Positions 44,238 to 61,479 are shown, numbered from the stretch's first letter. The stretch is 63,319 bases of DNA from Ignavibacteria bacterium (GCA_025451455.1 JANWKI010000133.1:1-63319), one strand, 5' to 3'. The notes: generated by a model not told the origin, from the letters alone. Numbers and translations: made by a program.

Positions 44238-44251
44238 TGACTAAAATGTCA
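44238..44251. promoter_or_regulatory. putative enhancer (UAS) site a: TGACT-AAAA-TGTCA
   Basis: One mismatch from TGACA-N4-TGTCA. Its centre is 59.5 nt upstream of the GG of the -24 element at 44303. Confidence 0.5.
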
Positions 44252-44302
44252 CAATTGTCAGAAAAATATGATGTTCTGTACCTCATATAAAGCATTTTGT
44301 TT

Positions 44303-44317
44303 TGGCATACTAATTGT
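44303..44317 (+). promoter_or_regulatory. sigma-54-type promoter a: TGGCAT-ACTAA-TTGT
   Basis: GG-N10-GT spacing as in TGGCAC-N5-TTGC. Lies 36 nt upstream of the ATG at 44353, which has an AAAGGAGG ribosome-binding site. Confidence 0.5.
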
Positions 44318-44352
44318 TCATATATACTTAAATGAAAGGAGGATTAAATACA

Positions 44353-45186
44353 ATGATATATACAAAAATTAGAAAGATTCTCATTATTCTGTTCATTCAA
44401 GCTGTTTTAACTGGCGGTTTATTAGCGCAACCGGGGTCATCTTATAATTCAAAATTTATGAATCAATCTATTCCGGACATGATGTCGCCGGGGCAGAAAT
44501 ATAATCTTATCATAACGTTTGAAAATTCAGGAAGAACAACATGGATACCGGGCGAAGTAAAGCTCAGGATATATTCAGATGAAGACAGGATGAAATCGAT
44601 CTGGTCCGTTTCTGAAATAGATCTCTCAAATAAGATAGATCCGGGAAGTTCGATCTCGTTCATGATCAATCTGGTTGCCCCGGCATCCGAGGGAGTATAT
44701 CATTTTATCAGCCAGCTTTATAATACTGCAGGGTATTTTGGAGAAACGGGCAAGCAGCTTGAAATATCCGTCAATAAAGAGACAGGAAGAACGGACTCAT
44801 TTAACAGCTCTGCTTTTGTTGAGCAGACAGTACCATCAGTTATGGAGGCCGGAAAGCCGTACAAGATCATGATAAGCTATACAAATACAGGTAACACGAG
44901 CTGGATAAAAGGCTCGTACAGGCTAGTTATGCTTGATGCAGCAGGTAATTATATGACAGGAATCAACTGGGGTAAATTTACAGTCAGTCTTGATGAAAAT
45001 ATTAAACCGGGCAGTTCAAAAGTATTTAATTTTGAAATTATCCCGGTAGAAGCAGGGACATACACCCTGCAATGGAGAATGGCCTCTAGTGAAACAGGTT
45101 TATTTGGTGATGCTACTAATCCGGCTGTTGTAAAGGTTAATCCCGTAGTTAAAAAGAAGAACGAGGGTAAGAGCGGTAAACAATAG
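44353..45186 (+). CDS. secreted protein with two NBR1/FW-type Ig-like domains
   Basis: Two ~115-aa repeats (F.NQSIP..M..GQKYNLIITFENSGRTTWIPG...IDPGSSISFMINLVAPASEGVYHFISQL and FVEQTVPSVMEAGKPYKIMISYTNTGNTSWIKG...IKPGSSKVFNFEIIPVEAGTYTLQWRM). The AAAGGAGG site favours the ATG at 44353 over 44332. Confidence 0.7.
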   Translation: MIYTKIRKILIILFIQAVLTGGLLAQPGSSYNSKFMNQSIPDMMSPGQKYNLIITFENSGRTTWIPGEVKLRIYSDEDRMKSIWSVSEIDLSNKIDPGSSISFMINLVAPASEGVYHFISQLYNTAGYFGETGKQLEISVNKETGRTDSFNSSAFVEQTVPSVMEAGKPYKIMISYTNTGNTSWIKGSYRLVMLDAAGNYMTGINWGKFTVSLDENIKPGSSKVFNFEIIPVEAGTYTLQWRMASSETGLFGDATNPAVVKVNPVVKKKNEGKSGKQ

Positions 45187-45222
45187 TTAATAAATTATTA
45201 ATTAATTTTAAGGAGGTATACT

Positions 45223-45375
45223 ATGTTGTGGACAGTAGCTTTAATTCTGATAGTTTTATGGGTACTCGGACTTGTAAGTTCATATACTATGGGTGGATTC
45301 ATACATATACTGCTGGTTCTGGCACTTGTTGCTGTACTTGTCAGGCTGATCCAGGGACGAAACCCGGTTGCATGA
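45223..45375 (+). CDS. lmo0937-family mini membrane protein (50 aa; absent from the ORF track)
   Basis: MLWTVALILIVLWVLGLVSSYTMGGFIHILLVLALVAVLVRLIQGRNPVA, preceded by AAGGAGG at 45210-45216. The pattern MLW...ILWLLG...GG.IH.LL..A....L.RL..GR matches my recollection of this family. Confidence 0.7.
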   Translation: MLWTVALILIVLWVLGLVSSYTMGGFIHILLVLALVAVLVRLIQGRNPVA

Positions 45376-45422
45376 ATACGTACTGATCTTTTACTTGACT
45401 GGAAAAATACATTTCAAACAAG

Positions 45423-45445
45423 TAAGGCGCTTAGATAGCGCCTTA
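45423..45445. terminator. bidirectional hairpin TAAGGCGCT-TAGAT-AGCGCCTTA
   Basis: 9-bp perfect stem between convergent genes (45375 on the plus strand, 45497 on the minus strand). Confidence 0.6.
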
Positions 45446-45496
45446 TTTGTGGTGCTTTATTTTATGCTCAATAAAACCATTAACTGAGTATAGAAG

Positions 45497-47755
45497 CTAT
45501 TCCACCTGCAGCTCCTGCCTTATTCTGTACATCCTGTGAAGAGATACCAGCCAGCTGATCGTTGATTCAGCGCCCTGGTTCTGGTTTGTTATCGTAGAAG
45601 TCAAACCATCAAAACATCCTCCCGAAATGAAATCATATAGAGGTTCCTGCCTGTCATTGTTCCCGAGGAACCAGCTGAATGTGATACCTATCTTATTGAT
45701 CCATTCCTTATCTTCAGATATGAGATATGCCTGGTAGCATGCATCGATCAATGCCGGAATTTCTATCGGCTGCTGGTCGAATCTTGCTTTTTCAGTGCCT
45801 TTATTGTACCATCCGTCATTTCCGATAAGGGAAATTGAGTTTCTATCCCTGTCATAAAGTTCACCAAATAACCAAACTATTGATTCGAGCCCGGTTGTCA
45901 AATAATTGGTGTTCTTGAAGTAAATTCCTCCCATCATGAGCGCCTGGGAAAGCCGGGCATTATCATATGTAAGAAATTTCTCAAACCATTTCCAGTTTTC
46001 ATCCCGTTCAGAACAATATTTATCATATAACCGCTCGAGCAGTTTCCTGCAGATCCTCTTCACTTCTCTTGCCCCGGAAAATCTCTGAAGATAAAAAATA
46101 CATCCCATAATGAGATAGGAAATAGAACGCAATGAAGTGAATTTTTCCATGCTCTTGATCGTCTGGTCAAAAAGCATTTTGCTCAGGGCAAGGTGTGAAT
46201 GATTTACTGCGTTCTTGACATAATAGCCAAGTACAAAAAGTGTTCTTCCGTTTGAATCTTCAGATCCGGATTCTTCAAGCCAATTCCTCTGGTAGCTCAT
46301 AAAATTCATGAACAACCCGGTTTCTTTGTTATAAGCATGAAGAATGAATGTTAAGTACGTAGTCAACAGTGAATCTATTTGCGGGTCATGAAACAGGTAT
46401 TTATTCATTATACAAGCCAGTAACGCCCTGGAATTATCATCTATACAATAACCCTCGCTCCTGTTCGGGGTAGAAAAAACCGCGTGCTGGATTATTCCCG
46501 TTGAATCGGTCATTGTTTTCAGATGGGAAAGATTAACTTCCGGAAGTGAAGGTATATACTTATACTTCGGTGATGCAACGAGCTGTGAAGTTGTAAGTTT
46601 GAACTCATCGATTGATCTTTGGAATATTTCAGCGTAACTTTTTGCGGCCTCCGGCCAGACCATTTTCCTGCCGGCTTCATATGCATTGCGGCGAAGCCTG
46701 TTTCTTTTGTTCTCATCTCCAAGCAGATCAGAAATTGCACTCGAGATAGCATCCGGATCCTTGAAAGGAACAAGCAGACCGCGCTCTTCTTTGAGTATTT
46801 CCTCGGCATACCAGTACGGAGTTGAAATAATAGCTTTGCCTGAAGCAAGGGCATAGGTCAATGTACCTGAAACTATCTGTTCCCTGTTATGATAAGGTGA
46901 AACATAAATATCGCTCATAAGGATGAACTCAAGCAATTCTTCTGTATTTACAAACCTGTTTATGAAGATCACGTTATTTTCAAGCTGGTTCTTCTTTACG
47001 AGATTTTCAAGGCTGTTCCTGTATGATTCGCCGTATTGTTTTCTTACGTGCGGATGAGTTGCTCCCAAAACTATATAAACTACATCCGGATAGTCTTTTA
47101 CAACATTCACCAGTGAGTTAATTACATCTTCAATTCCTTTTCCTGCGCTCAGAAGCCCGAAGGTCAGCAATACTTTTTTCTCTGTCAGCTGAAATTTTTC
47201 TTTATAATATGTCGTGTCAAGGAACGGGACATCATGTGCGCCGTGCGGAATATGAAATATCTTGTTCTTTTTTATTTTATAAACATCTTCCAGTATCTTA
47301 AAGGACTTTTTTGACTGTACAATAAGATAAGATGAATACCTTGTAATTTCTTCAATTACCTTTTGCTGATCGTCATTCGGGTTTTCAAGGACTGTATGGA
47401 ATGTAGTAACAACAGGTTTTTTCAGATTTTCAAGCAGGTAGAGAATATGCGAACCTGCTTCTCCGCCATAGAGCCCGAATTCATGCTGAAGATTGATAAT
47501 GTCCTTATCTGAGAGGTTAAGGTAATATGCCGCCTCTTTAAAATCATTAATGCTTTTGTCTTTGATCTCGAACTTTACTTCCTTCGGGTATTTGTATCCT
47601 TCGGATATATCGTTCAGGGCTGTAACACTTGATGCTAGTTCGTTTCCATTACTAAGATTATTAAAAGCATTCGATAAGTCATTTGTAAATGTTGCAATGC
47701 CGCACTGCCTGGGGACATATGAGGATATAAATGATACTCCTAAATTTTTATTCAT
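45497..47755 (-). CDS. GT4-family glycosyltransferase fused to a ~360-aa C-terminal alpha-helical (six-hairpin-like) domain
   Basis: The N-terminal ~390 aa resembles GT4 (HTVLENP..., YVSPYHNREQIVSGTLTYALASGKAIISTPYWYAEE). The C-terminal half has no motif I can name. Lies 3 nt downstream of a GH130 gene. Confidence 0.7.
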   Translation of the reverse strand: MNKNLGVSFISSYVPRQCGIATFTNDLSNAFNNLSNGNELASSVTALNDISEGYKYPKEVKFEIKDKSINDFKEAAYYLNLSDKDIINLQHEFGLYGGEAGSHILYLLENLKKPVVTTFHTVLENPNDDQQKVIEEITRYSSYLIVQSKKSFKILEDVYKIKKNKIFHIPHGAHDVPFLDTTYYKEKFQLTEKKVLLTFGLLSAGKGIEDVINSLVNVVKDYPDVVYIVLGATHPHVRKQYGESYRNSLENLVKKNQLENNVIFINRFVNTEELLEFILMSDIYVSPYHNREQIVSGTLTYALASGKAIISTPYWYAEEILKEERGLLVPFKDPDAISSAISDLLGDENKRNRLRRNAYEAGRKMVWPEAAKSYAEIFQRSIDEFKLTTSQLVASPKYKYIPSLPEVNLSHLKTMTDSTGIIQHAVFSTPNRSEGYCIDDNSRALLACIMNKYLFHDPQIDSLLTTYLTFILHAYNKETGLFMNFMSYQRNWLEESGSEDSNGRTLFVLGYYVKNAVNHSHLALSKMLFDQTIKSMEKFTSLRSISYLIMGCIFYLQRFSGAREVKRICRKLLERLYDKYCSERDENWKWFEKFLTYDNARLSQALMMGGIYFKNTNYLTTGLESIVWLFGELYDRDRNSISLIGNDGWYNKGTEKARFDQQPIEIPALIDACYQAYLISEDKEWINKIGITFSWFLGNNDRQEPLYDFISGGCFDGLTSTITNQNQGAESTISWLVSLHRMYRIRQELQVE

Positions 47756-47757
47756 CT

Positions 47758-48711
47758 CTATTTTGATTTCATGACATAAGCTAATACTTCTTTCATCGAA
47801 GCCGTAGCAATTGCTATCGATGTATCGGCTGCTCCATAGTACATTATCAGCTCATCACCTTTAATTACAACTCCGCACGGGAAAGTCACATCCGGTACAT
47901 CCCCGACCCTTTCATAATATTCATTCGGTCCAAATACCCAGTCTTCACATCTCCTGATAACTTTACACGGATCATCAAGATCAAGCATTGCAAGCCCCAG
48001 CCTGTATAAAGAACCTGCTGCGGTGGTTTTTACGCCATGATAAATTATTAGCCAGCCCTCAGGGGTTTCGATCGGCGGCGGGCCAAGGCCGACTTTGTAA
48101 GCATCCCACCAGCTGCCTTTTCTTGCAGGGAGAAGGATAGCATGATCGCCCCAGTGTTTCAGGTCAGGCGAAAATGAGATCCAAATATTTGCGCCCAAAA
48201 GATAACTTGTTGGTGACGGCCGGTGTAAAAGTGCCCACCTGCCCTTAAACATTCGGGGAAAAAGAGATGCGTCTTTATCGTCAGGAGGCATAATAGCTCC
48301 ATATCTCCTGTATGTTTCGAAATCCTCAGTTGTAGCAAGCGAAACCAGTGGACCGCTTTCAGAATAAGATGTATATACTATTACGTATCGTTTGTCATTT
48401 TCAAGCTTTACTATGCGAGGATCTTCAATGCCGTATTTTTCTTCCGGGTAATCTCCAACTTTTGGCGATAACGATGGTCCGGTATCAATCTTCCAGTTGG
48501 TAAAACCATCCTTGCTTTCGGCTTTGCATAAATGTGAAAAACCCTTCATGTCTTCGACCCTTACAAGAAGCAGGATCTTTTTGCCAAACTGAATAGCCCC
48601 GGCATTAAAAACCGAATTGACCCTGTAAGGCCACATTCCCGGAGTAAGAACCGGGTTATTTTTATATCTCTTAAAAAGTATGCTTTCCTGATGGGTTTGG
48701 GGGTTACTCAT
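47758..48711 (-). CDS. GH130-family glycoside phosphorylase/hydrolase (formerly DUF377, PH1107-related glycosidase)
   Basis: NPVLTP...VFNAGAIQFGKKILLLVRVED, GIEDPRIV, IIYHGV and MYYGAADTSIAIA are typical of GH130. Confidence 0.75.
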   Translation of the reverse strand: MSNPQTHQESILFKRYKNNPVLTPGMWPYRVNSVFNAGAIQFGKKILLLVRVEDMKGFSHLCKAESKDGFTNWKIDTGPSLSPKVGDYPEEKYGIEDPRIVKLENDKRYVIVYTSYSESGPLVSLATTEDFETYRRYGAIMPPDDKDASLFPRMFKGRWALLHRPSPTSYLLGANIWISFSPDLKHWGDHAILLPARKGSWWDAYKVGLGPPPIETPEGWLIIYHGVKTTAAGSLYRLGLAMLDLDDPCKVIRRCEDWVFGPNEYYERVGDVPDVTFPCGVVIKGDELIMYYGAADTSIAIATASMKEVLAYVMKSK

Positions 48712-48947: not shown

Positions 48948-49733
48948 TCACAATTTTGGATTTTCAGACTGGTAAATTTCCTTTTCAGATCTCTGCGCGG
49001 TCATTCTGAATATATTGATCAAGTTCCCGCCGTTGTTTTCAAGCGCTTCGGCTATTGCATCGCTCTTTTTTGAAAGTTTGATGTCACAAATATATTCGCT
49101 TTTGATAAAATCGTTTTGGGGAACCAGTTCAGACGCAATTATCTTTAAATGCCCTGTTTTGTTCCAAAGTTTTACCCACCAATCAAGCGAATGAACAAAA
49201 TACCATTTATCCTGGTAATGCGGACGCATGAAATCGGGCACCTCTGCAAGATAGTTTATTTCTTTTGCAAAGCATATATCAACCATACCAATTGTCCCCC
49301 CGGGTTTCAGGAACCGGGAAATGTAGGGAGTGAACCTTTCGTCAGTTCCGAAATACATATACGAATCGACGATTATAATTGCGTCAAAAAAATCTTTTGC
49401 AAAAGGCATTTCCTTTGCATTTACCTTCAGCGGGAACACTATTTTATCCAGTCCCAATTCACGGATTCTTTCGTAATTTTCTCCCGGGGGGATATTCTGG
49501 TCAACTGCCCATACCTCAGCGCCAAATTCCCTGGCGAGAAATATCGCACTTACTGCTTTTCCGCAGCCGAGATCCAGTACCCGCATCCCTTGCTTAAAAT
49601 CCATAACCTCACACAGGCTTTCCAGGTTGTAAAGCACATTTTCACCAAGAGAATTCTTTCTTATCCATTTTGGATCATACTTTGCGCTGAGTGGAAAAAA
49701 TACTTTGTGAAAGTGCTCATTGCGTTCCTTCAT
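48948..49733 (-). CDS. class I SAM-dependent methyltransferase
   Basis: Motif I: VLDLGCGKAVSAIFLAREFGAEVWAVD. Post-I and motif II are also present (IIVDSYMYF, LKPGGTIGM). Confidence 0.8.
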   Translation of the reverse strand: MKERNEHFHKVFFPLSAKYDPKWIRKNSLGENVLYNLESLCEVMDFKQGMRVLDLGCGKAVSAIFLAREFGAEVWAVDQNIPPGENYERIRELGLDKIVFPLKVNAKEMPFAKDFFDAIIIVDSYMYFGTDERFTPYISRFLKPGGTIGMVDICFAKEINYLAEVPDFMRPHYQDKWYFVHSLDWWVKLWNKTGHLKIIASELVPQNDFIKSEYICDIKLSKKSDAIAEALENNGGNLINIFRMTAQRSEKEIYQSENPKL

Positions 49734-50086
49734 ATTCTGCCAACGTTATTATTTATTACACCGGATTCAGAATCCTTATGTTCTTCTCTTACCGGGATTG
49801 ACCTGATAAGTTTTGCCAGGTTTATATCAGCGTATGCGCCGTAAGAATCTACCAGGATACCCCTTTCCCCGCTTTTTGCCGTAAGAACGTATACTCCGGC
49901 GTTATCATCCGGGTTAGAATCTCCTTCATACCTGTATGATTTTTCAATTATAAGCTCTTCAGGAGAATATTCCCTTTGAGTTTCACCTGAAATGATCTTC
50001 CCGTTCTTTATCTCGAAATTAGCCTTGTAGCCGTCATCATTTAATCTCCGTATTATTTCAAGTATTGTCTTCATTAATTTGAACAT
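49730..50086 (-). CDS. hypothetical protein
   Basis: 118-aa ORF whose stop overlaps the methyltransferase start by 4 nt. No motif recognised. Confidence 0.5.
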   Translation of the reverse strand: MFKLMKTILEIIRRLNDDGYKANFEIKNGKIISGETQREYSPEELIIEKSYRYEGDSNPDDNAGVYVLTAKSGERGILVDSYGAYADINLAKLIRSIPVREEHKDSESGVINNNVGRI

Positions 50087-50225
50087 TTTACATGAAATAG
50101 TTATTTAAGAGGCAATAAAAATGATGGCAGCGAAAATATATACGATTGTCAGAAAGTAAACGATAATTGATTTCATTGCCGGATTCTCCTTCTGCTTATT
50201 TGTTTTAAGTTAGAAAATAAACTGC

Positions 50226-50462
50226 TTATTCAGTTTCACCTTCTTCTTTCCTGGTTTTATTCACAGTAGCCATTGCAATTCTTTTGGCAGCCTTAATGGT
50301 GCGTCCCTGTTCTTTTTCACTTTCAAGAATGTGCCTGTATTGCCTTCTTCTTTTTGCAGGCAGGTTTGCCATTCTTTTTTCGGCGCCTTTCTTTTGGCCT
50401 TTTCTGCGGGTTTTAGTCTTGCTTCCGGGTTTCTTTTTGTGTGAATTTTTCTTCGCAGGCAT
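50226..50462 (-). CDS. small highly basic protein (78 aa)
   Basis: MPAKKNSHKKKPGSKTKTRRKGQKKGAEKRMANLPAKRRRQYRHILESEKEQGRTIKAAKRIAMATVNKTRKEEGETE. The upstream part of the 149-aa ORF-track version overlaps the next gene and looks non-coding. Confidence 0.45.
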   Translation of the reverse strand: MPAKKNSHKKKPGSKTKTRRKGQKKGAEKRMANLPAKRRRQYRHILESEKEQGRTIKAAKRIAMATVNKTRKEEGETE

Positions 50463-50526
50463 TATATACCCTTTTGAAAATGTTATTAAAAAAATTCCGA
50501 ACGTATATCTTCCATTATTCCATTTT

Positions 50527-50961: not shown

Positions 50962-50976
50962 ACAAAAAGTGTGCCA
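50962..50976 (-). promoter_or_regulatory. sigma-54-type promoter b (minus strand): TGGCAC-ACTTT-TTGT
   Basis: Reverse complement of 50962-50976. Lies ~50 nt upstream of the ATG at 50913. Confidence 0.5.
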
Positions 50977-51077: not shown

Positions 51078-51109
51078 CCGGAGGAGAAAAATGGAAAAAA
51101 AACTATTTC

Positions 51110-52475: not shown

Positions 52476-55400
52476 TTATGATATTGGAAGCTTTATTTCA
52501 ACAGTTGTACCTTTGCCTAAAGTGCTTTGTATGTTCAGAGTACCTTTATGGGATTTAATAGTCTGGTAAGCCAACCCGAGCCCAAGACCTGTGCCTTCTT
52601 CTTTTGTTGTATAGAACGGCTCAAGTATTTTATCAATGTTTTCGGGAGAGATCCCGATGCCGGAATCAATTACTTTAATGGAAATGCCATTCACTCTGCT
52701 GTCCTCTTCAGCAGTTATGGTTAATTTCCCCCCGGAGGGCATTGCATCAATTGCATTAGAAATGAAATTAAGCATTGCGTTTTCGAACTTAACTTTATCG
52801 ATTTTTATTAGTCTGAGTTCTTTTGGCAAATCAGTTTCTATTTCCACTCCGGACTCCTTACAGCGCGGTCGGGCACTTTCTGCAAGGTTATCAATTATTA
52901 CAGAGATATTTTCTTCTTTGAAAACAAGGTCTTCCGGTGAGGCAAAATTAAGCAGGTCTTTGATAATTTTATTTGCGATATCTGTGTTAACAAGTATATA
53001 GCTCAAATGCTTTCTTGATTTTTCATCAAGTTTTGTTTTATTCAACAGCTGGGCAAGTGCGCTGATGTTGGCCAGCGGGTTCCTGATCTCATGAGCAATT
53101 CCGGAAGAGAACCTGCCAAGAGCGGCAAGCTTTTCATTATGCACAAGTTCTTTCTGGGCCTCTATCAGTTTTTCATTCGTCTCTCTTAATTCCTCCTCTA
53201 CAAGTTTTATTTCAGTAATATCCTGTACACTGCCATACATTCTTACCGGTTTTGAATCGGTACCATACTCGACGAGAATACCTACATTCAAGAACTTTAA
53301 TCTACCGCTTTTTGTGATTATTCTGTATTCCAGATCCAGGTTTCCTGGTTTTTTCAGTAACTGAGATGTAATTGTTGTGATCTGTTCAAGGTCTGCGGGG
53401 TGAACCATATCAAGCACAGCATTATAATCAGGTTCGATCTCACCTGGAGAAAAACCATATATCCTGTACATTTCATCTGACCATACTTGCCGGCCTGTCA
53501 TAAGATCAAATTCCCAGCTTCCGAGTTTAGCGATCTGCTGGGCTTCAATCAGACTTTTTTCACTCTTCCTGATCTTTTCTTCAGCTTCTTTGAGTTCAGT
53601 TACGTCTATTACAGTCCCAACCATCCTAACTGATTCACCTCTATCATTCATCTCAATTTCACCAAGTGAATTCAGTATCTTGAACTTGCCTCTTGGTGTT
53701 TTGATCTTAAGGTAATAATTGAATGGCTTCTTTTCTTCCAGGGATTTCCTCATGGCTTCAGCCCGCTCTGATTTTGCATCTTCATCAAGAAGTTCAAGGT
53801 ATTTCTCGTTTGTAATAACGGTACCTGCCGGGACCTCAAAAATAGAATACATTTCGTCAGACCAGCGTACAATATTACTGTTAATTATCCATTCCCAGCT
53901 TCCAAGTCGTGCAATCTTTTGCGCTTCAATCAGTGATCTTTGTTTATCAATAAGCTCTTTCTCTATTTCTTTTCTTACCGTTATATCCTTTATCATACCC
54001 GTAAAGTAATGTTCATTATTGATCTCCCATTCAGCAATTGAAATCTCTATCGGGAATTCCTCGCCGTTTTTCCTTTTCCCTGAAAACTCAAGGGTTTGAC
54101 CTGTTAATTTAGAGTGGCCAGTATTCACGGTACTTTCAAATGCCTGCCTGTGTTTTTCTATATACCTTTCCGGCATTAATATCTCAAGTTTTCTGTTTAT
54201 GATCTCAAGAGAAGAATAGCCGAATAATTTTTCAACGGTATTATTTATATAAATGATCTCCCCTTTCCTGTTAACGGTTATTATTGCATCATTTGCAGTA
54301 TCTGCTACAGCCTTAAAATGTTTTTCGTTCGTTCTTATCTGTTCAAGAATTGCTATCCTTTCTGCCAGGCTCCCAAGTTCTATACCGATATTAGATATAC
54401 ATTCCAGCATTTCATTATCAACAGGATGATGGGCTGAAATAAAAAATTCCAATATCCCTATCACTTCGGTCTGCTTCATTATCGGGACACAAATCGCAGT
54501 TTGCAGCCCCATCTTTTGCGCAGTACCTTTCCTGGTGAAGGTGTTCACATCAGTTTTATTAATATCAATCCAAATTGACTTGGCTTCAGCATAAGCAGTG
54601 CCTATTAAGCCAACTCCTTTCGCTATTGCTGCTTCGGATGATTCCTCCACAAAAAGCTCATACTTCTTATCTATATCGTAATTCCAAATTCCGGCAGACC
54701 AGAGAATTTTTCCCTCTTTGACAAGATAGCAGTGCCCGATTTCAAATGAAGTATACTGGCAGACCTTGTTTATCGCGTAAGAAATAGAAATTTCAAGTTC
54801 AAATGATTTATTGGCTACTGTAATAACATCATTGAGAAGTTTTAGCAGACCGTTTCTTTTCTTTATGAGTTCTTCCTGGATCCTGGAAAGTGTAATGTCC
54901 TGGCAAATACCTACAATTGCCTCAATCTTTCCTTCATCATTTCTTATCACACTGGTAGATAGATATATATAAAACGGCTCATTATCTTTGCTTACAGTTT
55001 TAAGTTCACCCTTCCATCCGCTTCTGATTGTACGTGTTGCTATCTCCTCTCTCAACGGTATCGAAAGCTCTTCCGAAAAGAGAACAGGGTTCTTTTTGCT
55101 TTTTAGCTCTTCTTCATAATAACCGAAAAGTGATTCAAAGGCAGAGTTAACAAACAGAACATTGTTATCAAGATCGGTAATATAAACACATTCTTTTATG
55201 CTCTTAATGGCATGGCCAAAGAGTTTAAGCTTATTCTGTATTTTCTCCTTGTATTCAATTTCTGAAAGGAGCTTATTAAGAGTATTTGCAAGCTCAACAG
55301 TCCTTTCTCTTACCCTGTCTTCAAGTTCACTGTATGATTGTCTCAGCTTGTCCTCGGCTTTTTTTCTTTCTAGGAAATTCCCAATTTGCCTGCCGACTGC

Positions 55401-57026
55401 TTCAAGCACTTCAAGCAGATCATCTTTTGGAGTCAGCTTATTTTCATTAAAACACTCGATCACCGAAACAACCTCGCTGCCATTGTTTATCGGTACTGCA
55501 AAAGCCGATTTCCATCCCATTTCCAGTGCATCATCTCTTCTGAGAAATATGTTATCTTTCTCAATATCCTGTATCCAGAGTGATTTTTCATTCCTCCATA
55601 CTATTCCCGGGAGGCCTTTACCCTTTTCAAGCCGGTATGATTCATCATACTTTCCGGTATATGTCGATGTATTTTTCTTTTTTGAGCTCCATGAGGAAGC
55701 AGGGTACAATGTGCTTCCGTTAGTTCTCCAGAGTACTCCAAAATGCCAGTCTACACCCTGGCAGATATCCTGAAGCACCTGGTTGAGGATATGTTCGGTT
55801 GAGCCCGGCTCCGTAAGTGTTTTTGATACTGAGTGCTGTATCCTCAGGTATCTTTCATTGATCTTTCTGGAGTGAATATCAATACAGCATCCGATATATC
55901 CTGCAAAATCATTGCCTTCGTATCTTGGAATTCCCTTATCAAATATCCATCTATACTCACCCATTGAATTCCGGAGCCGGTATTCCATTTCAAACGGTTC
56001 TTTCTTTTCGAAAGCCATAATGTATGTTTCCATGGTTTTCTGAAGATCTTCAGGATAAACACCCTCTGACCAGCCCGAACCAGTCTCCTCTTTCATAGTA
56101 CGTCCAGTGTAGTCAAGCCAGCCTTTGTTGAAATAATTACATTCTTTGTCCCGCCCGGACATCCAAATTAGTACAGGTGCAAAATCAGCCATAGTCCTGA
56201 ACCTTTCTTCGCTTTCCCTGAGAGAGTATTCGGCTTTTATCCTGCTGTTGATTTCCTGAATAAGGCTCTCATTGGCAAGGCTCAATTCAGCAGTTCTTTC
56301 CTCAACTTTATCTTCCAGTTCGTCATACGATCTCTTCAGAAGTTTTTCAGCTATATTCTTATTTTTTAATAACCTGTTCGAAATTACTAATGAAAGCCCG
56401 ATCACCAAAAAGGCAAGTACGCTTGTAAGAACAATAAATAACTGAATATTTTCTGATCCTGAATTTGCTTCCAGCCGCCTTTTTGTGAGGAGTTCAAGTT
56501 CATTGGATTTCACATCAGATGCAAGCTGATACACTTCTTCAAGATAATTCTGGGATATTATGATGAGGGGTGTCTGCTGTTCATTAACTATTCCGTTTGA
56601 TCTGAATAATGTTATAGTTGAATCAAGATAAAATATGTTTAACTTAGCAAGCGAATCCATCAGCAATATATAGGTGTGCTGCCGGGGGTTATCTTTGGTA
56701 AGTTCTTTGAGTACTGAAAGTTCATAATTTGCTTTGCTTTTGTTTTCGTTATAGCTGGCAAAGTATTTTTCATCCTTTTTCAGAATTAATCCCCGCCTGT
56801 TGATCTGCATTTCGGTCAAATGCATATTGACTGCTTCAGTATTTTTCTGCACTTCATTTGTATGATCGATCCACTCCATACTGGATTTATACTCATTTAT
56901 GTTCTGGTAGGTAATAATGCTGAGGATTATGAAAACAAGCAAAAAGACAATAAATGCCGAAGGAATGAACTTTTCCAAAGGCATCCTAACTGCCAGAGCT
57001 CTGAATTTTGGCACCAGTTTCTTCAT
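52476..57026 (-). CDS. 1516-aa multi-sensor histidine kinase (CHASE3-like, TM, PAS, GAF, PAS, GAF, three PAS, HisKA, HATPase)
   Basis: N-terminal TM-bounded periplasmic domain resembling CHASE3, then coiled coils. PAC-type motifs recur (EYRLRNSMGEYRWI, EYRIITKSGRLKF, and others). Two GAF-like blocks. H-box SSGIAHEIRNPL. ATPase G-boxes (IKVIDSGIGI, GTGLGLGLA). Confidence 0.88.
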   Translation of the reverse strand: MKKLVPKFRALAVRMPLEKFIPSAFIVFLLVFIILSIITYQNINEYKSSMEWIDHTNEVQKNTEAVNMHLTEMQINRRGLILKKDEKYFASYNENKSKANYELSVLKELTKDNPRQHTYILLMDSLAKLNIFYLDSTITLFRSNGIVNEQQTPLIIISQNYLEEVYQLASDVKSNELELLTKRRLEANSGSENIQLFIVLTSVLAFLVIGLSLVISNRLLKNKNIAEKLLKRSYDELEDKVEERTAELSLANESLIQEINSRIKAEYSLRESEERFRTMADFAPVLIWMSGRDKECNYFNKGWLDYTGRTMKEETGSGWSEGVYPEDLQKTMETYIMAFEKKEPFEMEYRLRNSMGEYRWIFDKGIPRYEGNDFAGYIGCCIDIHSRKINERYLRIQHSVSKTLTEPGSTEHILNQVLQDICQGVDWHFGVLWRTNGSTLYPASSWSSKKKNTSTYTGKYDESYRLEKGKGLPGIVWRNEKSLWIQDIEKDNIFLRRDDALEMGWKSAFAVPINNGSEVVSVIECFNENKLTPKDDLLEVLEAVGRQIGNFLERKKAEDKLRQSYSELEDRVRERTVELANTLNKLLSEIEYKEKIQNKLKLFGHAIKSIKECVYITDLDNNVLFVNSAFESLFGYYEEELKSKKNPVLFSEELSIPLREEIATRTIRSGWKGELKTVSKDNEPFYIYLSTSVIRNDEGKIEAIVGICQDITLSRIQEELIKKRNGLLKLLNDVITVANKSFELEISISYAINKVCQYTSFEIGHCYLVKEGKILWSAGIWNYDIDKKYELFVEESSEAAIAKGVGLIGTAYAEAKSIWIDINKTDVNTFTRKGTAQKMGLQTAICVPIMKQTEVIGILEFFISAHHPVDNEMLECISNIGIELGSLAERIAILEQIRTNEKHFKAVADTANDAIITVNRKGEIIYINNTVEKLFGYSSLEIINRKLEILMPERYIEKHRQAFESTVNTGHSKLTGQTLEFSGKRKNGEEFPIEISIAEWEINNEHYFTGMIKDITVRKEIEKELIDKQRSLIEAQKIARLGSWEWIINSNIVRWSDEMYSIFEVPAGTVITNEKYLELLDEDAKSERAEAMRKSLEEKKPFNYYLKIKTPRGKFKILNSLGEIEMNDRGESVRMVGTVIDVTELKEAEEKIRKSEKSLIEAQQIAKLGSWEFDLMTGRQVWSDEMYRIYGFSPGEIEPDYNAVLDMVHPADLEQITTITSQLLKKPGNLDLEYRIITKSGRLKFLNVGILVEYGTDSKPVRMYGSVQDITEIKLVEEELRETNEKLIEAQKELVHNEKLAALGRFSSGIAHEIRNPLANISALAQLLNKTKLDEKSRKHLSYILVNTDIANKIIKDLLNFASPEDLVFKEENISVIIDNLAESARPRCKESGVEIETDLPKELRLIKIDKVKFENAMLNFISNAIDAMPSGGKLTITAEEDSRVNGISIKVIDSGIGISPENIDKILEPFYTTKEEGTGLGLGLAYQTIKSHKGTLNIQSTLGKGTTVEIKLPIS

Positions 57027-57061: not shown

Positions 57062-57075
57062 CGACAAATATGTCA
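57062..57075. promoter_or_regulatory. putative enhancer (UAS) site c: CGACA-AATA-TGTCA
   Basis: One mismatch. Its centre is 59.5 nt upstream of the GG of promoter c, the same distance as in module a. Confidence 0.45.
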
Positions 57076-57126
57076 TAAAAAACTATCCCACTTACCAAAA
57101 TAACACCTAAAATAACAAAAAAGATT

Positions 57127-57141
57127 TGGCACATGAATTGT
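57127..57141 (+). promoter_or_regulatory. sigma-54-type promoter c: TGGCAC-ATGAA-TTGT
   Basis: Lies in the divergent region between the kinase (minus strand) and 57207 (plus strand), 66 nt upstream of an ATG with an AAAGGAGG site. Confidence 0.5.
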
Positions 57142-57206: not shown

Positions 57207-57359
57207 ATGGTAAATCTGAGAATTTCCGAAAATGATCTGGGATATTTAAGACTGCTAATCGATATCATTTCAGCAAATGAGAACGAAAATCAGCAGGAAA
57301 ATGAACAGGAAAGATCAATTCTGCCTATACAGATCAAAAAGGAAGATGTAATACACTAG
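57207..57359 (+). CDS. candidate 50-aa acidic protein (absent from the ORF track)
   Basis: MVNLRISENDLGYLRLLIDIISANENENQQENEQERSILPIQIKKEDVIH, preceded by AAAGGAGG at 57194-57201. Confidence 0.45.
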   Translation: MVNLRISENDLGYLRLLIDIISANENENQQENEQERSILPIQIKKEDVIH

Positions 57360-57409
57360 GAGAGTATGATTTATGCCAATATGGCAAATAGCTAATAAAT
57401 ATACAGATA

Positions 57410-57826
57410 ATGCCAAATTTAAATGTTTTAATATTGATCGTCGAAGATGATAAATACATGAATGAAACACTATGTGAAGTTCTGGAAGCTGAAGGCTATA
57501 ATGTGGAGTCAGCAACCAGCGCACTGGGTGCTATAAACAAACTAAAGCATAGTGATGAAGTTTTTCATATCCTCGTCCTCGATTATAATCTGCAGCACCT
57601 CAGAGGAATAACTGGACTGGATATTTTTGAAATTGCAAAGGAGGTTAATCCCAATGTAAAAGCGATAATGATCTCTGCCTACGGAAGGGATAAGAATATT
57701 AGAGAGAAAGCTCTTTCCATTGGCATAGAGACTTTTTTAGACAAACCATTCCTGATCACAGATCTGGTTGATACAATTGATGATCTTGCCAGGGATTTGA
57801 CCGAACATGGAAAAGTTCCATGTTAA
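57410..57826 (+). CDS. single-domain CheY-like response regulator receiver
   Basis: ILIVEDD...ILVLDYNL (phospho-acceptor Asp)...MISAYG...DKPF. No output domain. Confidence 0.8.
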   Translation: MPNLNVLILIVEDDKYMNETLCEVLEAEGYNVESATSALGAINKLKHSDEVFHILVLDYNLQHLRGITGLDIFEIAKEVNPNVKAIMISAYGRDKNIREKALSIGIETFLDKPFLITDLVDTIDDLARDLTEHGKVPC

Positions 57827-57884
57827 TTTTAAAATTAATCATTTATAAAAAATAAATCATTTAAAAAAGAAAGGATTTACTAAA

Positions 57885-58514
57885 ATGAAATCTACTAAAC
57901 TTATTATAATATTAATTGCTGCAATAATGGCATTTTCAACACTGGAGAATTATGCTCAGCAAAAACCGAATTCTACAGTTAAAAAAGAAACGACCTTAAA
58001 GAAAATGTATCCGCATGTTTCAATCGCACCGATTGGCGGAGCTATTTTCCCGTTGACCAGGCAGTTAAGAGATGAATTCAAGCCGGGTGGTTTGGTTGGC
58101 CTTGATATAGGTTACAGGATCAATAAAGAAATATCACTGCAGGGTAACTTTTCATACGTCTTCATGTCTTCAAAATTAACCGGGGCGCCTGTTGGAAATT
58201 ATCTTGAATTCAGTGCAGGACCCAGGTACTTCTTTATGCACCCAAAACTTAAATCAGCATTGTTTTTTGAAGCCGGTGTTGGCGCATACAATTTCAGGCA
58301 AAACAGCTATGTGAACGCCCAGGATACTAACGGGTCAGCAATTCCCCAGATCAACAATACAAAAGCCGGAATCAGCGGAGGTTTGGGTGTATCGCTTTCT
58401 TTGAGCGAGGCTATTGATATTCTTGTAAAAACAAATTATCACAACGTCTTTACACCTAACGGTTCACAGGGATTTATGACTGTAAACGGCGGACTTGAAT
58501 TCAGATTCAGATAA
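57885..58514 (+). CDS. outer-membrane beta-barrel protein (small porin/OmpW-like)
   Basis: Signal peptide, alternating hydrophobic beta-strand pattern and a C-terminal aromatic residue (GGLEFRFR). Confidence 0.6.
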   Translation: MKSTKLIIILIAAIMAFSTLENYAQQKPNSTVKKETTLKKMYPHVSIAPIGGAIFPLTRQLRDEFKPGGLVGLDIGYRINKEISLQGNFSYVFMSSKLTGAPVGNYLEFSAGPRYFFMHPKLKSALFFEAGVGAYNFRQNSYVNAQDTNGSAIPQINNTKAGISGGLGVSLSLSEAIDILVKTNYHNVFTPNGSQGFMTVNGGLEFRFR

Positions 58515-58530
58515 TTTATAATCTCACTTA

Positions 58531-58566
58531 TGCAGGCGGAGGAAAACTCCTCCGCCTGCATTTTAT
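58531..58566 (+). terminator. rho-independent terminator TGCAGGCGGAGG-AAAACT-CCTCCGCCTGCA-TTTTATT
   Basis: 12-bp perfect GC-rich stem plus a T-run, 17 nt after the stop. Confidence 0.8.
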
Positions 58567-59673: not shown

Positions 59674-59814
59674 ATGGAACAATTAGAAGAAAAGTCACCT
59701 GAACTTCCGATACTTACTGATGATACGGAAGCGGAAGATGAAAATGAAGAAATATTCAAATGGCTCAGTATAGCTGTGCTGTTGATATGGATAATTTCAT
59801 TTTTTTTATTTTAG
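59674..59814 (+). CDS. candidate 46-aa tail-anchored acidic protein (absent from the ORF track)
   Basis: MEQLEEKSPELPILTDDTEAEDENEEIFKWLSIAVLLIWIISFFLF. No clear SD sequence, so weak. Confidence 0.3.
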   Translation: MEQLEEKSPELPILTDDTEAEDENEEIFKWLSIAVLLIWIISFFLF

Positions 59815-59839
59815 AAAATAATTCAGGAGTTCAAAAAAA

Positions 59840-59998
59840 ATGCTTTGGGTAATATTTACATTGCTCGTTATACTCTGGGCACTTGGTACAATTTCGAATA
59901 CACTTACGGGAAGCTATATACACTTCCTGTTACTTGCAGCAGTAGCTCTATTCATTTTCGGTATGCTGCAAAGAAAAAAAAAGAAAACAGAGCTATGA
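59840..59998 (+). CDS. second lmo0937-family mini membrane protein (52 aa; absent from the ORF track)
   Basis: MLWVIFTLLVILWALGTISNTLTGSYIHFLLLAAVALFIFGMLQRKKKKTEL is a paralog of 45223..45375. Its TGA (59996-59998) overlaps the sigma-factor ATG (59995-59997). Confidence 0.6.
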   Translation: MLWVIFTLLVILWALGTISNTLTGSYIHFLLLAAVALFIFGMLQRKKKKTEL

Positions 59999-60495
59999 GT
60001 AAAGAAGAAATGTTCAAAAATGAGGCTTATATTCACTATGGTTATTTTCTTAATATCGCAAAGAAAATGACGCATAATATCCCCGATGCCGAGGACCTTG
60101 TACAGGATACTTTCATAAGGGCGTTTAATTTCATTGATACATTCCAGCCGGGCACAAATTGCAGGGCGTGGCTTTACAGGATAATGAAGAACCTGTTCAT
60201 AAACCTGAGCCGGAAGAAAAATGCTCACCCGACACAGAGCCTGGAAGATTATCATTATGAAAAGGGCGGCGATACATATGAGCCAGATGCAACAATTTAC
60301 GAGATCATGAAAATGATCCAGGAAATAAAAGATGAATACAGGGCGGTAATAATATTATATCATCTGGAAGAATTTTCACTTAAAGAGATCTCAAAAACAC
60401 TTAAATGGCCGCTGGGAACTGTAAAAAGCAGGCTGCACAGAGCCAGAAGAGAATTCAAAAAAATATTAGTGAATTCCATAGAATATCCTTTTTAA
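59995..60495 (+). CDS. ECF (sigma-70 family group 4) RNA polymerase sigma factor
   Basis: Region 2 (DAEDLVQDTFIRAF...RAWLYRIMKNLFIN) and region 4 (LSLKEISKTLKWPLGTVKSRLHRARREF). The 216-aa ORF-track version adds an implausible N-terminus in the frame that overlaps the mini protein. Confidence 0.8.
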   Translation: MSKEEMFKNEAYIHYGYFLNIAKKMTHNIPDAEDLVQDTFIRAFNFIDTFQPGTNCRAWLYRIMKNLFINLSRKKNAHPTQSLEDYHYEKGGDTYEPDATIYEIMKMIQEIKDEYRAVIILYHLEEFSLKEISKTLKWPLGTVKSRLHRARREFKKILVNSIEYPF

Positions 60496-60511
60496 AAAGG
60501 AGGTAAATAAA

Positions 60512-60829
60512 ATGGGAGTTTTGGGTAATCAGCTTCATATCGAAGGGGAAAATAATGAGCTTTTCATTTATTTTCATCTTCATGAATTCAAGCTATTCAA
60601 AGCCCTTGAAGTACTTGAGGAATATATTAATACTTTTAAGAGCAGGGATTTTGAGAAAATAAATGTTTCCTTTTTGAACAAAGGCGTGCCAGGTGATCAT
60701 TTAAGCAATTTCCGGAGAACTAAAAATAAGGCAATAGGCAAAATTTTGAAGGGAATTAAATGTATTGATGCATGCTTTCATTCAAAGGATAACCTAAAGG
60801 TCTTTTATTTACCAAAGTTGTTCAACTGA
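60512..60829 (+). CDS. hypothetical protein downstream of the ECF sigma factor (no TM or zinc-finger anti-sigma signature)
   Basis: AAAGGAGG site 7 nt upstream of the ATG. 105 aa with no recognisable motif. Confidence 0.45.
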   Translation: MGVLGNQLHIEGENNELFIYFHLHEFKLFKALEVLEEYINTFKSRDFEKINVSFLNKGVPGDHLSNFRRTKNKAIGKILKGIKCIDACFHSKDNLKVFYLPKLFN

Positions 60830-61388
60830 TTTCAAATAATATGCAGAATAGTTCAGATAATCTTCTATCAGGGGATAGGTCCGTTAAGATTATGATATAC
60901 AAAGCAGCAATAGGGTTGATGGATCAGGCTGTCTCAATCCAGCTTTCCCCAAAGCACATTCCCACTTTTGATTCAGCTTCCCATAATATCCCGCAGGCAG
61001 GCCGTATGAGACTGCCTGTTGCTGCATTGTATCCGAAGCTGTGCAAATTTTGACGTTCACATTGTGTAAATTTTCATAACTTTCAGCTAATTTAAAAAGT
61101 TGTTTTCAGACTGTAAATCCACCTGGAAGTATTTAAAGGATTAGAAATTGATTTATGAAGGCGGGGTAAATATATATTCTGACCAAATAGAAGGGTATAT
61201 TTCAAAAGAATTTTAGAAACAAAAAAATCTTTCATGCTTGGTTTTTTCAGTTTTTAAGTGAACCCGATAATGGTTCTTCTTTTGCCCGCCTTCAATATTA
61301 AACAATGAGATACATACCCTTATAATTTATTTCGATCATGGCATCAGGAATTTCAAAGTACTTTACGAGTCAATTCATATGAATTCAG

Positions 61389-61406
61389 TGTGACAGATTT
61401 GTCACA
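61389..61406. promoter_or_regulatory. putative enhancer (UAS) site d: TGTGACA-GATT-TGTCACA (perfect, 7-bp arms)
   Basis: The core TGACA-N4-TGTCA is perfect. Its centre is 68.5 nt upstream of the GG of promoter d. Confidence 0.5.
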
Positions 61407-61464
61407 TGATTTTCAGGAAGCTTATTTTCGGGCTGAAAACTATCATCAAATGCAATTGAATATC

Positions 61465-61479
61465 TGGCACGATAATTGA
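61465..61479 (+). promoter_or_regulatory. sigma-54-type promoter d: TGGCAC-GATAA-TTGA
   Basis: Same GG-N10 spacing as the other three. Lies ~190 nt upstream of the ATG at 61671. Confidence 0.45.

Follow-up and report, generated by a model that had tools for sequence, protein, structure and literature searches.

Is a palindrome that recurs upstream of sigma-54-type promoters the binding site of the one enhancer-binding protein (EBP) encoded among them? The window considered here, a 63,319-bp stretch of Ignavibacteria DNA, raises this question because the original prediction read in it a module, used four times, in which a TGACA-N4-TGTCA palindrome precedes a TGGCA(C/T)-N5-TTG element. Based on the evidence outlined below, we posit, with a probability of about 0.8, that the window holds the local regulon of a two-component NtrC-family EBP (51110..52465), which would bind the palindrome and activate five predicted sigma-54 promoters. 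The units are real, since their arrangement is conserved in 21 related genomes, but they are mechanistically ordinary, a textbook activator site joined to a sigma-54 promoter.

Five composite units and the genes behind them

The four 14-mers and four TGGCAY-N5-TTG elements originally listed all proved correct in position and strand, as did, on recheck, the spacings measured from the middle of each palindrome to the first G (59.5, 69.5, 59.5 and 68.5 nt) and the 7-bp arms of site (d) at 61389-61406. What had been overlooked is a fifth promoter, (a'), at 44185..44171, which diverges from (a) and has the upstream site cluster in common with it, so that the window contains five composite units, (a), (a'), (b), (c) and (d), each an upstream site plus a sigma-54-type promoter (Table 1). 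TGG(C/T)A(C/T)-N5-TTG is present at all five promoters, and the sites are without exception intergenic and oriented toward the next gene, as had been claimed.

Could this co-occurrence be due to chance, or to the base composition of AT-rich intergenic DNA? With a genome at 38% G+C and such short half-sites, the question is fair: the window contains exactly 4 matches to TGGCAY-N5-TTG, with 1.39 expected, and 7 to the 14-mer with at most one mismatch, with 1.9 expected, five of the seven lying inside units. When a composite is defined as a promoter-like site with a 14-mer 55-75 nt upstream, however, the comparison with shuffled sequence that the original prediction had proposed gives, for the window, 5 composites against a mean of 0.002 and a maximum of 1 in 1000 dinucleotide-preserving shuffles. 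Promoter and palindrome matrices trained on the orthologous loci only, and thus cross-validated, return exactly five promoter and five palindrome matches in the 63 kb and no false ones. Together with the independent retention of the units, at bimodal spacing, in 21 genomes, the shuffles and the matrix scan rule out such an origin, whose probability we regard as negligible.

Table 1. Predicted regulatory elements, genes and terminators of the five units, in map order.
Feature	Position	Strand	Sequence	Details
133-aa secreted protein, family unassigned	44137..43736	-		behind promoter (a')
Sigma-54-type promoter (a')	44185..44171	-	TGGTATGCTAATTGT	matrix 17.1 bits; palindrome at 70 nt
Shared upstream site cluster (a)/(a')	44238..44260		TGACTAAAATGTCACAATTGTCA	two overlapping 14-mers; matrix 14.4 and 16.4 bits
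Sigma-54-type promoter (a)	44303..44317	+	TGGCATACTAATTGT	matrix 19.6 bits
Operon (a)	44353..45375	+		then bidirectional terminator 45418-45450
Secreted protein, two NBR1-type Ig domains	44353-45186	+		operon (a)
DUF5670 small membrane protein	45223-45375	+		operon (a)
GT4 glycosyltransferase, 752 aa	45497-47755	-
GH130 beta-mannoside phosphorylase-like	47758-48711	-
Gene group behind promoter (b)	48948..50913	-
SAM methyltransferase	48948-49733	-		behind promoter (b)
118-aa protein, no assigned family	49730-50086	-		behind promoter (b)
Basic 78-aa protein	50226-50462	-		behind promoter (b)
Hydrophilic 128-aa protein	50527-50913	-		behind promoter (b)
Sigma-54-type promoter (b)	50962..50976	-	TGGCACACTTTTTGT	19.8 bits; predicted start ~50950
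Predicted upstream activator site (b)	51038..51051		TGACATTTTTGACA (promoter strand)	about 70 nt from GG; 19.9 bits
Intrinsic terminator, kinase-activator operon	51058..51079	-		T-tract runs directly into site (b)
NtrC-family enhancer-binding response regulator, 451 aa	51110..52465	-		receiver, AAA+, Fis-type HTH_8
Sensor histidine kinase, 1516 aa	52476..57026	-		CHASE3, several PAS and GAF, HisKA, HATPase_c (Pfam)
Predicted upstream activator site (c)	57062..57075		CGACAAATATGTCA	about 60 nt from GG; 25.4 bits
Conserved A-rich block	57076..57126	+	AAATAACA-N3-AAAA-N4-CAAAAAAGATT	between site (c) and -24 box
Sigma-54-type promoter (c)	57127..57141	+	TGGCACATGAATTGT	25.9 bits; predicted start ~57153
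Operon (c)	57207..58561	+
50-aa ORF	57207-57359	+		operon (c)
Receiver-only response regulator	57410-57826	+		operon (c)
Outer-membrane beta-barrel	57885-58514	+		operon (c)
Strong terminator	58530-58561	+		end of operon (c)
Predicted upstream activator site (d)	61389..61406		TGTGACAGATTTGTCACA	7-bp arms; about 69 nt from GG
Sigma-54-type promoter (d)	61465..61479	+	TGGCACGATAATTGA	25.2 bits
Operon (d)	61519..63319	+		continues past window end
43-aa hydrophobic ORF	61519-61650	+		operon (d); absent from original prediction
OMP-like 181-aa protein	61671-62216	+		operon (d)
Lipoprotein-like ORF, no assigned family	from 62249	+		operon (d); runs off window

The cluster between (a) and (a') comprises three half-sites, TGACT-aaaa-TGTCA-caat-TGTCA (44238-44260), and its overlapping 14-mers are at distances of 60 or 51 nt to the plus-strand promoter and of 61 or 70 nt to the minus-strand one. 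DUF5670 genes are found behind an (a)-type unit in orthologous loci L006 and L047 as well. The 43736..44137 gene has homologues that follow TGGCAY-N5-TTGT sites in L004, L005 and L018, and also in L047, where the element is CGGCACGGAAATTGA; at these (a')-type promoters, the upstream half-sites are degenerate or off-spacing.

Site (b) was placed correctly and on the correct strand, but it reads TGACA-N4-TGACA on the promoter strand and is therefore one central base short of a perfect palindrome. The abutment of the terminator T-tract on this site is kept in orthologues (CTGCTTTTTTTATGACA), and gene order downstream of the (b)-type unit is the same in about 10 orthologous loci. The GH130 and GT4 genes (45497..48711) are co-directional with the (b) genes and syntenic; because 236 nt lie between them and the methyltransferase gene, their membership of the (b) transcript is uncertain.

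When unit (c) is aligned without gaps across 15 genomes, conservation covers the upstream site, the A-rich block and the -24/-12 boxes but not the flanks; the CGACA variant of the site is kept in 10 of the 14 other genomes. The A-rich block may be an intrinsic bend, a site for an architectural protein or a divergent promoter for the kinase gene. Site (c) lies just 36 nt upstream of the opposite-strand kinase start codon, a position from which it would also let the activator autoregulate its own operon. Behind this promoter, 57207..58514 had been taken for a single gene; it actually consists of three ORFs, which are followed by the terminator at 58530-58561, and the receiver-only regulator among them may serve for feedback, for instance as a phosphate sink. 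At (d), the orthologue of 61671-62216 in L003 stands behind a (d)-type unit as well.

What do these targets have in common? Their products (DUF5670, small hydrophilic or membrane proteins, outer-membrane barrels, a secreted Ig-like protein, a receiver-only regulator and mannoside enzymes) suggest, though weakly, a response of the envelope or stress type. Close by are a YtxH gene and an ECF sigma gene, neither with an identified promoter of its own.

The activator and its candidate site

The kinase carries its H-box, SSGIAHEIRNPL, at residue 1312, and its gene ends 10 nt from that of the activator; the two genes adjoin in orthologous loci too. The activator combines a receiver (Response_reg, E=4e-30, with D52 and K102; Pfam and motif), an AAA+ domain (Sigma54_activat PF00158, E=4e-69, plus an AAA lid; Pfam) with Walker A GESGTGKE at 170 and Walker B LFLDE at 238, and a C-terminal HTH_8 (E=5.8e-13, residues 410-446). 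Its sigma-54-contacting loop, at residue 217, is GAFTDA, with F and T intact; a D in place of G5 of the GAFTGA loop is known to be functional, FlgR of epsilon-proteobacteria being the example (PMC3162934 Fig. 3 legend). Assignment to a named equivalog (NtrC, AtoC, ZraR, GlrR, NtrX or the PEP-CTERM regulator) was rejected, every score falling below its NCBIfam cut-off: 427 against 714 for AtoC, 411.5 against 558.6 bits for NtrC (TIGR01818), 393 against 502.6 for PEP_resp_reg and 382 against 760 for ZraR, as well as 302 against 750 for FlgR.

Orthologues of the kinase and the activator (61-72% identity) occur in 21 Ignavibacteria genomes, which keep both the synteny of kinase, activator and target operons and the units themselves. 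Of 47 TGGCAY-N5-TTG sites in these orthologous loci, 29 have the palindrome upstream, 18 at 58-61 nt and 11 at 68-71 nt, and none has it at 62-67 nt, so that the proposal of two phasings about one helical turn apart is borne out as a strictly bimodal distribution. Units of the (b) type flip between the two classes among genomes, with no intermediate values, and the spacing from GG to the -12 element, itself one helical turn, is invariant in the 47 sites. Some promoters adjoining the activator gene in orthologues are without a palindrome at the usual distance.

Could the promoters be genuine sigma-54 promoters while another EBP, a repressor or an architectural factor binds the palindrome, the link to the kinase-activator pair being merely positional? 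Palindromes of the same type precede sigma-54-like promoters in many unrelated contigs of metagenomic origin, with other spacings and including one class at 63 nt with TTGC, so that other regulators recognise similar sites and the half-site does not single out this activator; moreover, the visible portion of the genome is 63 kb, and binding to the palindrome is predicted here from sequence. Nonetheless, we judge another binder improbable, given that units lie on both sides of the activator gene in essentially all 21 orthologous loci, whereas beside more distant EBP homologues of other phyla (58 loci, 745 kb) none of 50 TGGCAY-N5-TTG sites has the palindrome within 400 nt. The recognition region of the HTH (N-E/Q-RTFYRK) follows the same division, being kept among the orthologues and different in the distant homologues. 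Apart from the ECF sigma factor, the conserved island contains no other DNA-binding regulator, and a tblastn search of the window with the AAA+ domain turns up just this one copy, in agreement with the claim that the activator is the only protein of its kind there. This flanking, the absence near distant EBPs, the orthologue-trained matrices and the domains and motifs of the activator support the view of the palindrome as an EBP upstream activator site placed in helical phase with the promoters, and we infer that the activator is the only protein to bind it.

The proposed mechanism is as follows. The CHASE3/PAS/GAF kinase (52476-57026) would phosphorylate the receiver of the activator (51110-52465), whose Fis-type HTH, as a dimer, would recognise TGACA-N4-TGTCA. 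Counted from the -24 GG, the centre of the site lies ~60 or ~70 nt upstream, which would put it near -84 or -94 relative to the transcription start, and the AAA+ ring, on the same face of the helix and by way of a short DNA loop, could contact sigma-54 holoenzyme at TGGCAY-N5-TTG(T/A). This contact would drive open-complex formation, and promoters (a), (a'), (b), (c) and (d) would all be driven in this way.

Sigma-54 and the -12 box

At the 47 orthologous sites the G of the -12 box is kept, and it is followed by T at 34 sites, by A at 11 and by C at 2; TTGT or TTGA in 45 of 47 thus replaces the canonical GC (TTGCW), whereas in low-GC loci of other phyla 12 of 17 sites have TTGC. The caveat originally attached to this box (TTGT or TTGA for TTGC) therefore describes a real deviation, but it weighs less than it seemed to, because the E. 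coli pspA promoter, TGGCACGCAAATTGT, carries the same TTGT variant. No rpoN was found in the 63-kb window or in the Ignavibacteria loci examined, and a literature search found no paper addressing rpoN of these Ignavibacteria; the presence of sigma-54 in the genome is accordingly implied, and the transcription starts of the units are predicted positions.

Might TGGCAY-N5-TTG instead be an operator, or might these be sigma-70 or ECF elements with TGACA as the -35, and the activator independent of sigma-54 in the manner of TyrR or HupR? The missing -12 C and the implied status of sigma-54 would fit, as would the ECF sigma gene in the island and the palindromes that read TTGACA. Still, the 5-nt gap between the boxes is incompatible with -35/-10 spacing, there is no conserved T before TGACA and no conserved -10 after it, and a sigma-70 consensus scan gives 63 matches against 59 in shuffles, which is no excess. 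GG-N10-TTG with TGGCAC is invariant across the 21 genomes, pspA shows that TTGT is functional, and the activator loop keeps F and T, unlike that of TyrR or DhaR (PMC3162934). We thus regard a sigma-54-independent arrangement as very improbable and retain sigma-54-dependent activation.

To generalize the question, have Ignavibacteria sigma-54 promoters as a class swapped the near-universal -12 GC for G(T/A), along with the GAFTDA loop? The contrast in the -12 box just described is compatible with a change across the lineage, as is that in the loop (GAFTDA in 20 of 21 activator orthologues, GAFTGA in 10 of 10 distant homologues aligned), but we speculate here and consider so broad a change unlikely. 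The -12 data fit a property of the lineage or of one regulon alike. If the change were class-wide, standard sigma-54 models would systematically overlook promoters of the lineage, whose -12 fork-junction lock would have a different tuning.

Comparison with known systems

The best solved relative of the activator is Aquifex aeolicus NtrC1 (PDB 4l4u, 1ny5; E=1.6e-95, residues 4-450). Both NtrC1 and the NtrB-NtrC system have the same receiver, AAA+ and Fis-type HTH domains and an adjacent cognate kinase, and glnAp2 likewise has a palindromic upstream site, a -24/-12 promoter and DNA looping. The NtrC site is TGCACC-N5-GGTGCA, whereas the site here is TGACA-N4-TGTCA, nitrogen genes are not among the targets and the place of NtrB is taken by a 1516-aa CHASE3/PAS/GAF protein. 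There is also a single palindrome per promoter, whereas many EBPs use at least two sites.

PspF lacks a receiver domain, and its control is exerted by the binding of PspA. Its regulon and the present one both concern envelope or membrane proteins, and the A-rich stretch AAAAAGATAAAAAATTGGCAC before the E. coli pspA promoter resembles CAAAAAAGATTTGGCAC of unit (c); in contrast to the PspF/pspA system, the present one lacks a pspA homologue and has an upstream site of another sequence. FlgR of Campylobacter and Helicobacter controls flagellar genes and is not known to need an upstream DNA site. Like the activator here, it is a response-regulator EBP, and it has the same GAFTDA variant (PMC3162934).

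A parallel in reasoning comes from a different phylum. For Desulfovibrio vulgaris, EBP regulons were deduced in the same way, from an EBP gene together with conserved sigma-54 promoters and a site (Kazakov et al. 2015, PMC4641369); there, the nearest EBP binding site is typically no more than ~100 nt from the promoter, the -12 consensus is tTGCt, and a TGACA or TGTCA motif is not mentioned. In total, the activator is not matched to a named EBP equivalog, and the architecture of its proposed regulon is one already known.

Five Composite Units in the Window

The original prediction held that one module, a TGACA-N4-TGTCA 14-mer (the predicted upstream activator site) ahead of a sigma-54-type TGGCAY-N5-TTG promoter, is used four times in the window. 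When the regions were read and the elements extracted by coordinate, the four 14-mers and the four promoter elements were borne out in sequence, strand, and position, as were the 7-bp arms of unit (d) and the distances from palindrome center to GG. The count of four was too low; a relaxed scan adds a fifth unit, (a'), and the observation is confirmed and extended to five units. Two details required correction: site (b), read on its own promoter strand, is TGACA-N4-TGACA, and 57207..58514, taken to be one gene, comprises three ORFs and a terminator.

These elements exceed chance expectation. TGGCAY-N5-TTG occurs 4 times in the 63,319-bp window versus 1.39 expected, and all 4 are the predicted sites. 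TGACA-N4-TGTCA (at most one mismatch) occurs 7 times versus 1.9 expected, a count that no shuffle reached, with five of the seven falling within the reported intergenic regions. Counting as a composite any TGGYAY-N5-TTG with a 14-mer (at most one mismatch) 55 to 75 nt upstream, we observed 5, compared with a mean of 0.002 in 1000 dinucleotide-preserving shuffles. The three half-sites between units (a) and (a') give each of these divergent promoters a 14-mer at ~60 or ~70 nt.

Features of the predicted regulatory system and the genes behind each unit (window coordinates)
Feature	Position	Strand	Description
Unit (a') promoter-like element	44185..44171	-	TGGTATGCTAATTGT; faces ORF 44137..43736, diverges from unit (a); relaxed scan
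Unit (a') gene			133-aa secreted protein, no assigned family
Half-site cluster of (a)/(a')	44238-44260		TGACT-aaaa-TGTCA-caat-TGTCA, three half-sites, intergenic
Unit (a) genes			Secreted protein with NBR1-type Ig domains, then DUF5670 small membrane protein
Unit (b) genes			Two hydrophilic small proteins, 118-aa protein without assigned family, methyltransferase
Past 236-nt gap after (b) methyltransferase			GH130 beta-mannoside-phosphorylase-like enzyme, long GT4 glycosyltransferase
Activator	51110..52465	-	Receiver, Sigma54_activat, AAA-lid, HTH_8 (Pfam)
Kinase	52476..57026	-	CHASE3/PAS/GAF/HisKA/HATPase (Pfam); ends 10 nt upstream of activator gene
A-rich block of (c)	57076-57126		AAATAACA-N3-AAAA-N4-CAAAAAAGATT, between site (c) and -24 box
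Unit (c) genes			50-aa ORF, receiver-only regulator, outer-membrane barrel; strong terminator at end
Between (c) and (d)			YtxH protein, second DUF5670-like ORF, ECF sigma factor
46-aa membrane ORF	59675-59815	+	Close upstream of ECF sigma gene
52-aa DUF5670-like ORF	59840-59998	+	Close upstream of ECF sigma gene
ECF sigma gene	59995-60495		
Unit (d) genes			43-aa hydrophobic ORF, OMP-like protein, another ORF leaving the window
43-aa hydrophobic ORF	61519-61650	+	MILVKTFLQIVISTISIFYIILSSTQYFFGIAEVLNRLASFIH; inside apparent 180-nt leader of (d); absent from the original prediction

The 43-aa ORF probably represents a genuine gene for a small membrane protein, given that locus L003 has a homologue at the equivalent position with a TTQYFFG motif in common (tblastn E=0.001). 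An Rfam search over the whole window returned two tRNAs and no match for the long leader of (d), and NCBIfam supplied no name for eight unassigned regulon proteins.

Elsewhere in the window, seven large secreted proteins (22190-31258 and 39130-42362) carry BNR/sortilin-type repeats or a peptidase S41 domain, each with a terminal type IX secretion (Por_Secre_tail) sorting domain, which is consistent with the Bacteroidota/Ignavibacteria assignment. Two multiheme c-type cytochromes (MtrC/MtrF-like domains) lie on either side of two sulfur-transport and rhodanese membrane proteins (32541-37682); this may be a sulfur or extracellular electron-transfer module. The window also contains an 846-aa PDZ-GAF-SpoIIE (PP2C) phosphatase (14722-17262, minus strand) and two adjacent tRNA genes (17486-17644, plus strand).

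The Activator and Its Orthologous Loci

As proposed, the activator is the sole enhancer-binding protein (EBP) encoded in the window. It has D52, K102, Walker A and B motifs, and a GAFTDA loop, and an H-box is present in the kinase. It falls under every cutoff of the named NCBIfam equivalogs; among solved structures, Aquifex NtrC1 is its best relative. The system belongs to the known kind of NtrC-family two-component EBP and sigma-54 systems, as a new member that has no name.

A contig of GCA_044448925.1 encodes the activator protein without a single difference and matches window positions 45632-59224 at 99.75% identity. Scanning one genome for each species yielded 21 loci in Ignavibacteria metagenome-assembled genomes, with activators 61 to 72% identical, and 58 loci in other phyla with more distant homologues. 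Gene order is kept in the 21 orthologous loci. The kinase-divergent side reads unassigned 105-aa gene, ECF sigma, DUF5670, YtxH, unassigned 212-aa gene, outer-membrane barrel, receiver-only regulator, and 50-aa ORF, followed by kinase and activator, with the order of the DUF5670 gene and then the ECF sigma gene kept across loci; beyond the activator come an extra lipoprotein gene (in most genomes), small proteins, methyltransferase, GH130, and GT4. The (c)-like composite lies between the kinase and the receiver-only operon, and the (b)-like composite directly follows the terminator that lies beyond the activator gene or, if present, beyond the lipoprotein gene.

The 343 kb of these 21 loci contain 47 TGGCAY-N5-TTG sites, of which 29 have the palindrome at 58 to 61 nt (18 sites) or 68 to 71 nt (11 sites) from the promoter GG; none has it at 62 to 67 nt. 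Among the 50 such sites in the 58 distant loci (745 kb), none has a palindrome within 400 nt. The spacing class of (b)-type units differs from genome to genome, and this split between both classes is the signature of a face-of-helix constraint. Such a jump in spacing, to ~60 or ~70 nt among orthologues with nothing in between, cleanly illustrates in nature the rule that enhancer sites keep helical phase. The HTH recognition region of the activator is conserved inside the orthologue group and different outside it, consistent with a group-specific site.

Position matrices trained on the 29 orthologous units only, leaving out the window, match exactly five promoters and five palindromes in it, with no further hit on either strand. 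When unit (c) is aligned without gaps across 15 genomes, the flanks vary while the site (in most cases CGACA-N4-TGTCA), the A-rich block, and GATTTGGCAC-N5-TTGT are conserved; at -24, TGGCGC occurs in two genomes. The A-rich block, found in 14 orthologous loci, may form an intrinsic bend, bind an architectural protein, or be the divergent kinase promoter; by eye, nothing between the site and its promoter convincingly matches the IHF consensus. Sigma-54-type promoters in other genomes also precede homologues of the (a') gene, DUF5670, and the (d) OMP-like gene. The palindrome is retained at 58 to 70 nt for DUF5670 (locus L006) and the (d)-type gene (L003), and half-sites upstream of (a')-type genes are degenerate or differently spaced.

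Two further arrangements were observed in these loci. At L005 15139-15225, TGACAAAATTGTCG and TGGCATGGTTTTAGT are 68 nt apart, with an NBR1-Ig gene ~500 nt downstream of this pair and another ORF that seems to begin before that gene, at 15243; the -12 box there has TAGT in place of TTGT, a more degenerate form of this element. The extra lipoprotein gene, present in most orthologous loci (L008, L009, L010, L013, L014, L015, L023, and L047) and missing from the window, has its own TGGCAT-N5-TTGT with no upstream palindrome. TGACATWTTTGACA, which is intragenic and encodes NDIFDK, lies 296 nt downstream of that promoter (the two features are about 30-60 nt and about 330 nt past the activator stop codon). 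This stretch always uses the rarer of the Asp codons, GAC, which hints that the DNA itself is constrained, perhaps as an enhancer acting from downstream.

The -12 Box, Sigma Factors, and Shared Half-Sites

At -12, the promoters consistently break the GC rule. Across the 47 orthologous sites, position four of the -12 box holds T (34 sites), A (11), or C (2); in the distant loci, 34 of 50 sites have C there. Could low G+C account for TTGT? This explanation is ruled out, as AT-rich Cloacimonadota and Omnitrophota loci retain TTGC. Distant loci below 42% G+C have C (12) or A (5) and never T (0), and thus base composition does not explain the difference. TTGT is functional in E. coli, where the sigma-54 promoter of pspA reads TGGCACGCAAATTGT; an A-rich stretch ahead of that promoter resembles the block of unit (c). 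The activator loop is also unusual, with GAFTDA in place of GAFTGA in 20 of 21 orthologues versus 0 of 10 aligned distant homologues. The -12 G(T/A) box and this loop are two mild peculiarities of the system. In FlgR, the GAFTGA-to-GAFTDA substitution is functional (PMC3162934).

A reading of TGACA as a sigma-70 -35 box is ruled out by the lack of a conserved preceding T and of a -10 box. A sigma-70 consensus scan gave 63 promoter-like matches versus 59 by shuffle and is therefore uninformative on the kinase promoter; the terminators from the same scan were of use. The -12 variant may be a trait of this regulon or of the lineage; no other EBP gene, whose promoters would bear on this, was found in the flanks of the 21 orthologous loci. 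The exact composite pattern (gap, 40-70), searched for in metagenomes, matched at least 120 contigs. Most of the matches listed have TTGC, their spacing peaks at 58-61, 63, 70, and 73 nt, and they come from a mixture of taxa that provides no clean phasing test for this regulon. These matches show that the TGACA/TGTCA half-site serves other EBP families too, for example, a 63-nt class with TTGC. In this class, the palindrome is exactly 63 nt from TGGCAY-N5-TTGC (contigs L109, L114, L121, L122, L123, L124, L135, L141, L161, L188, and L200) and is longer, CTGACA-N4-TGTCAG, in 7 of the 11; it probably marks another EBP family with a shared half-site and a canonical -12 box.

Pfam scans of 30 other window ORFs found no rpoN, and a six-frame search for the RpoN box across the window and all loci gave matches in one Omnitrophota and one Planctomycetia locus alone, with none in the window or the Ignavibacteria loci. 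The literature on Ignavibacterium and Melioribacter yielded nothing specific on rpoN or sigma-54, and we found no published description of sigma-54 biology in Ignavibacteria, a class with few cultured members. KdsD-like, LptC, and LptA/OstA-like genes lie in a row at 3268-6252 with no lptB and rpoN after them; in Proteobacteria, lptB and rpoN come after such a cluster.

Proposed Mechanism and Known Systems

In total, we posit a mechanism in which the kinase would phosphorylate the receiver domain of the activator, an HTH dimer would bind the 14-bp palindrome (its half-sites centered 9 bp from each other) near -84 or -94, and the AAA+ ring would touch the sigma-54 holoenzyme on the -24/-12 promoter via looping. 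We consider this mechanism of kinase, response-regulator EBP, predicted palindrome site, and sigma-54 promoters quite likely (a probability of roughly four in five). The interpretation put forward in the original prediction is supported, with strong evidence from genome comparison. The result is a well-supported regulatory prediction that links an activator, a 14-bp site, five window promoters, and a regulon core in 21 genomes.

Only 36 nt separate site (c) in the window from the start codon of the kinase, which is on the other strand, and L009 has similar spacing, which makes it plausible that the activator autoregulates the kinase-activator operon. The receiver-only regulator that operon (c) always contains may serve as a phosphate sink. 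The gene content of the regulon weakly suggests an envelope or stress response. The prediction ties unnamed conserved small proteins, outer-membrane barrels, and the GH130/GT4 mannoside pair to one CHASE3/PAS/GAF sensor, and this tie is a starting point toward the function of those proteins.

The mechanism is a textbook one and leaves the understanding of sigma-54 regulation unchanged. The kinase-activator system has the same architecture as classical response-regulator enhancer-binding proteins. In Desulfovibrio, promoters are typically within about 100 nt of the nearest EBP binding site (PMC4641369), and the site-promoter distance here fits the range typical of those regulons.
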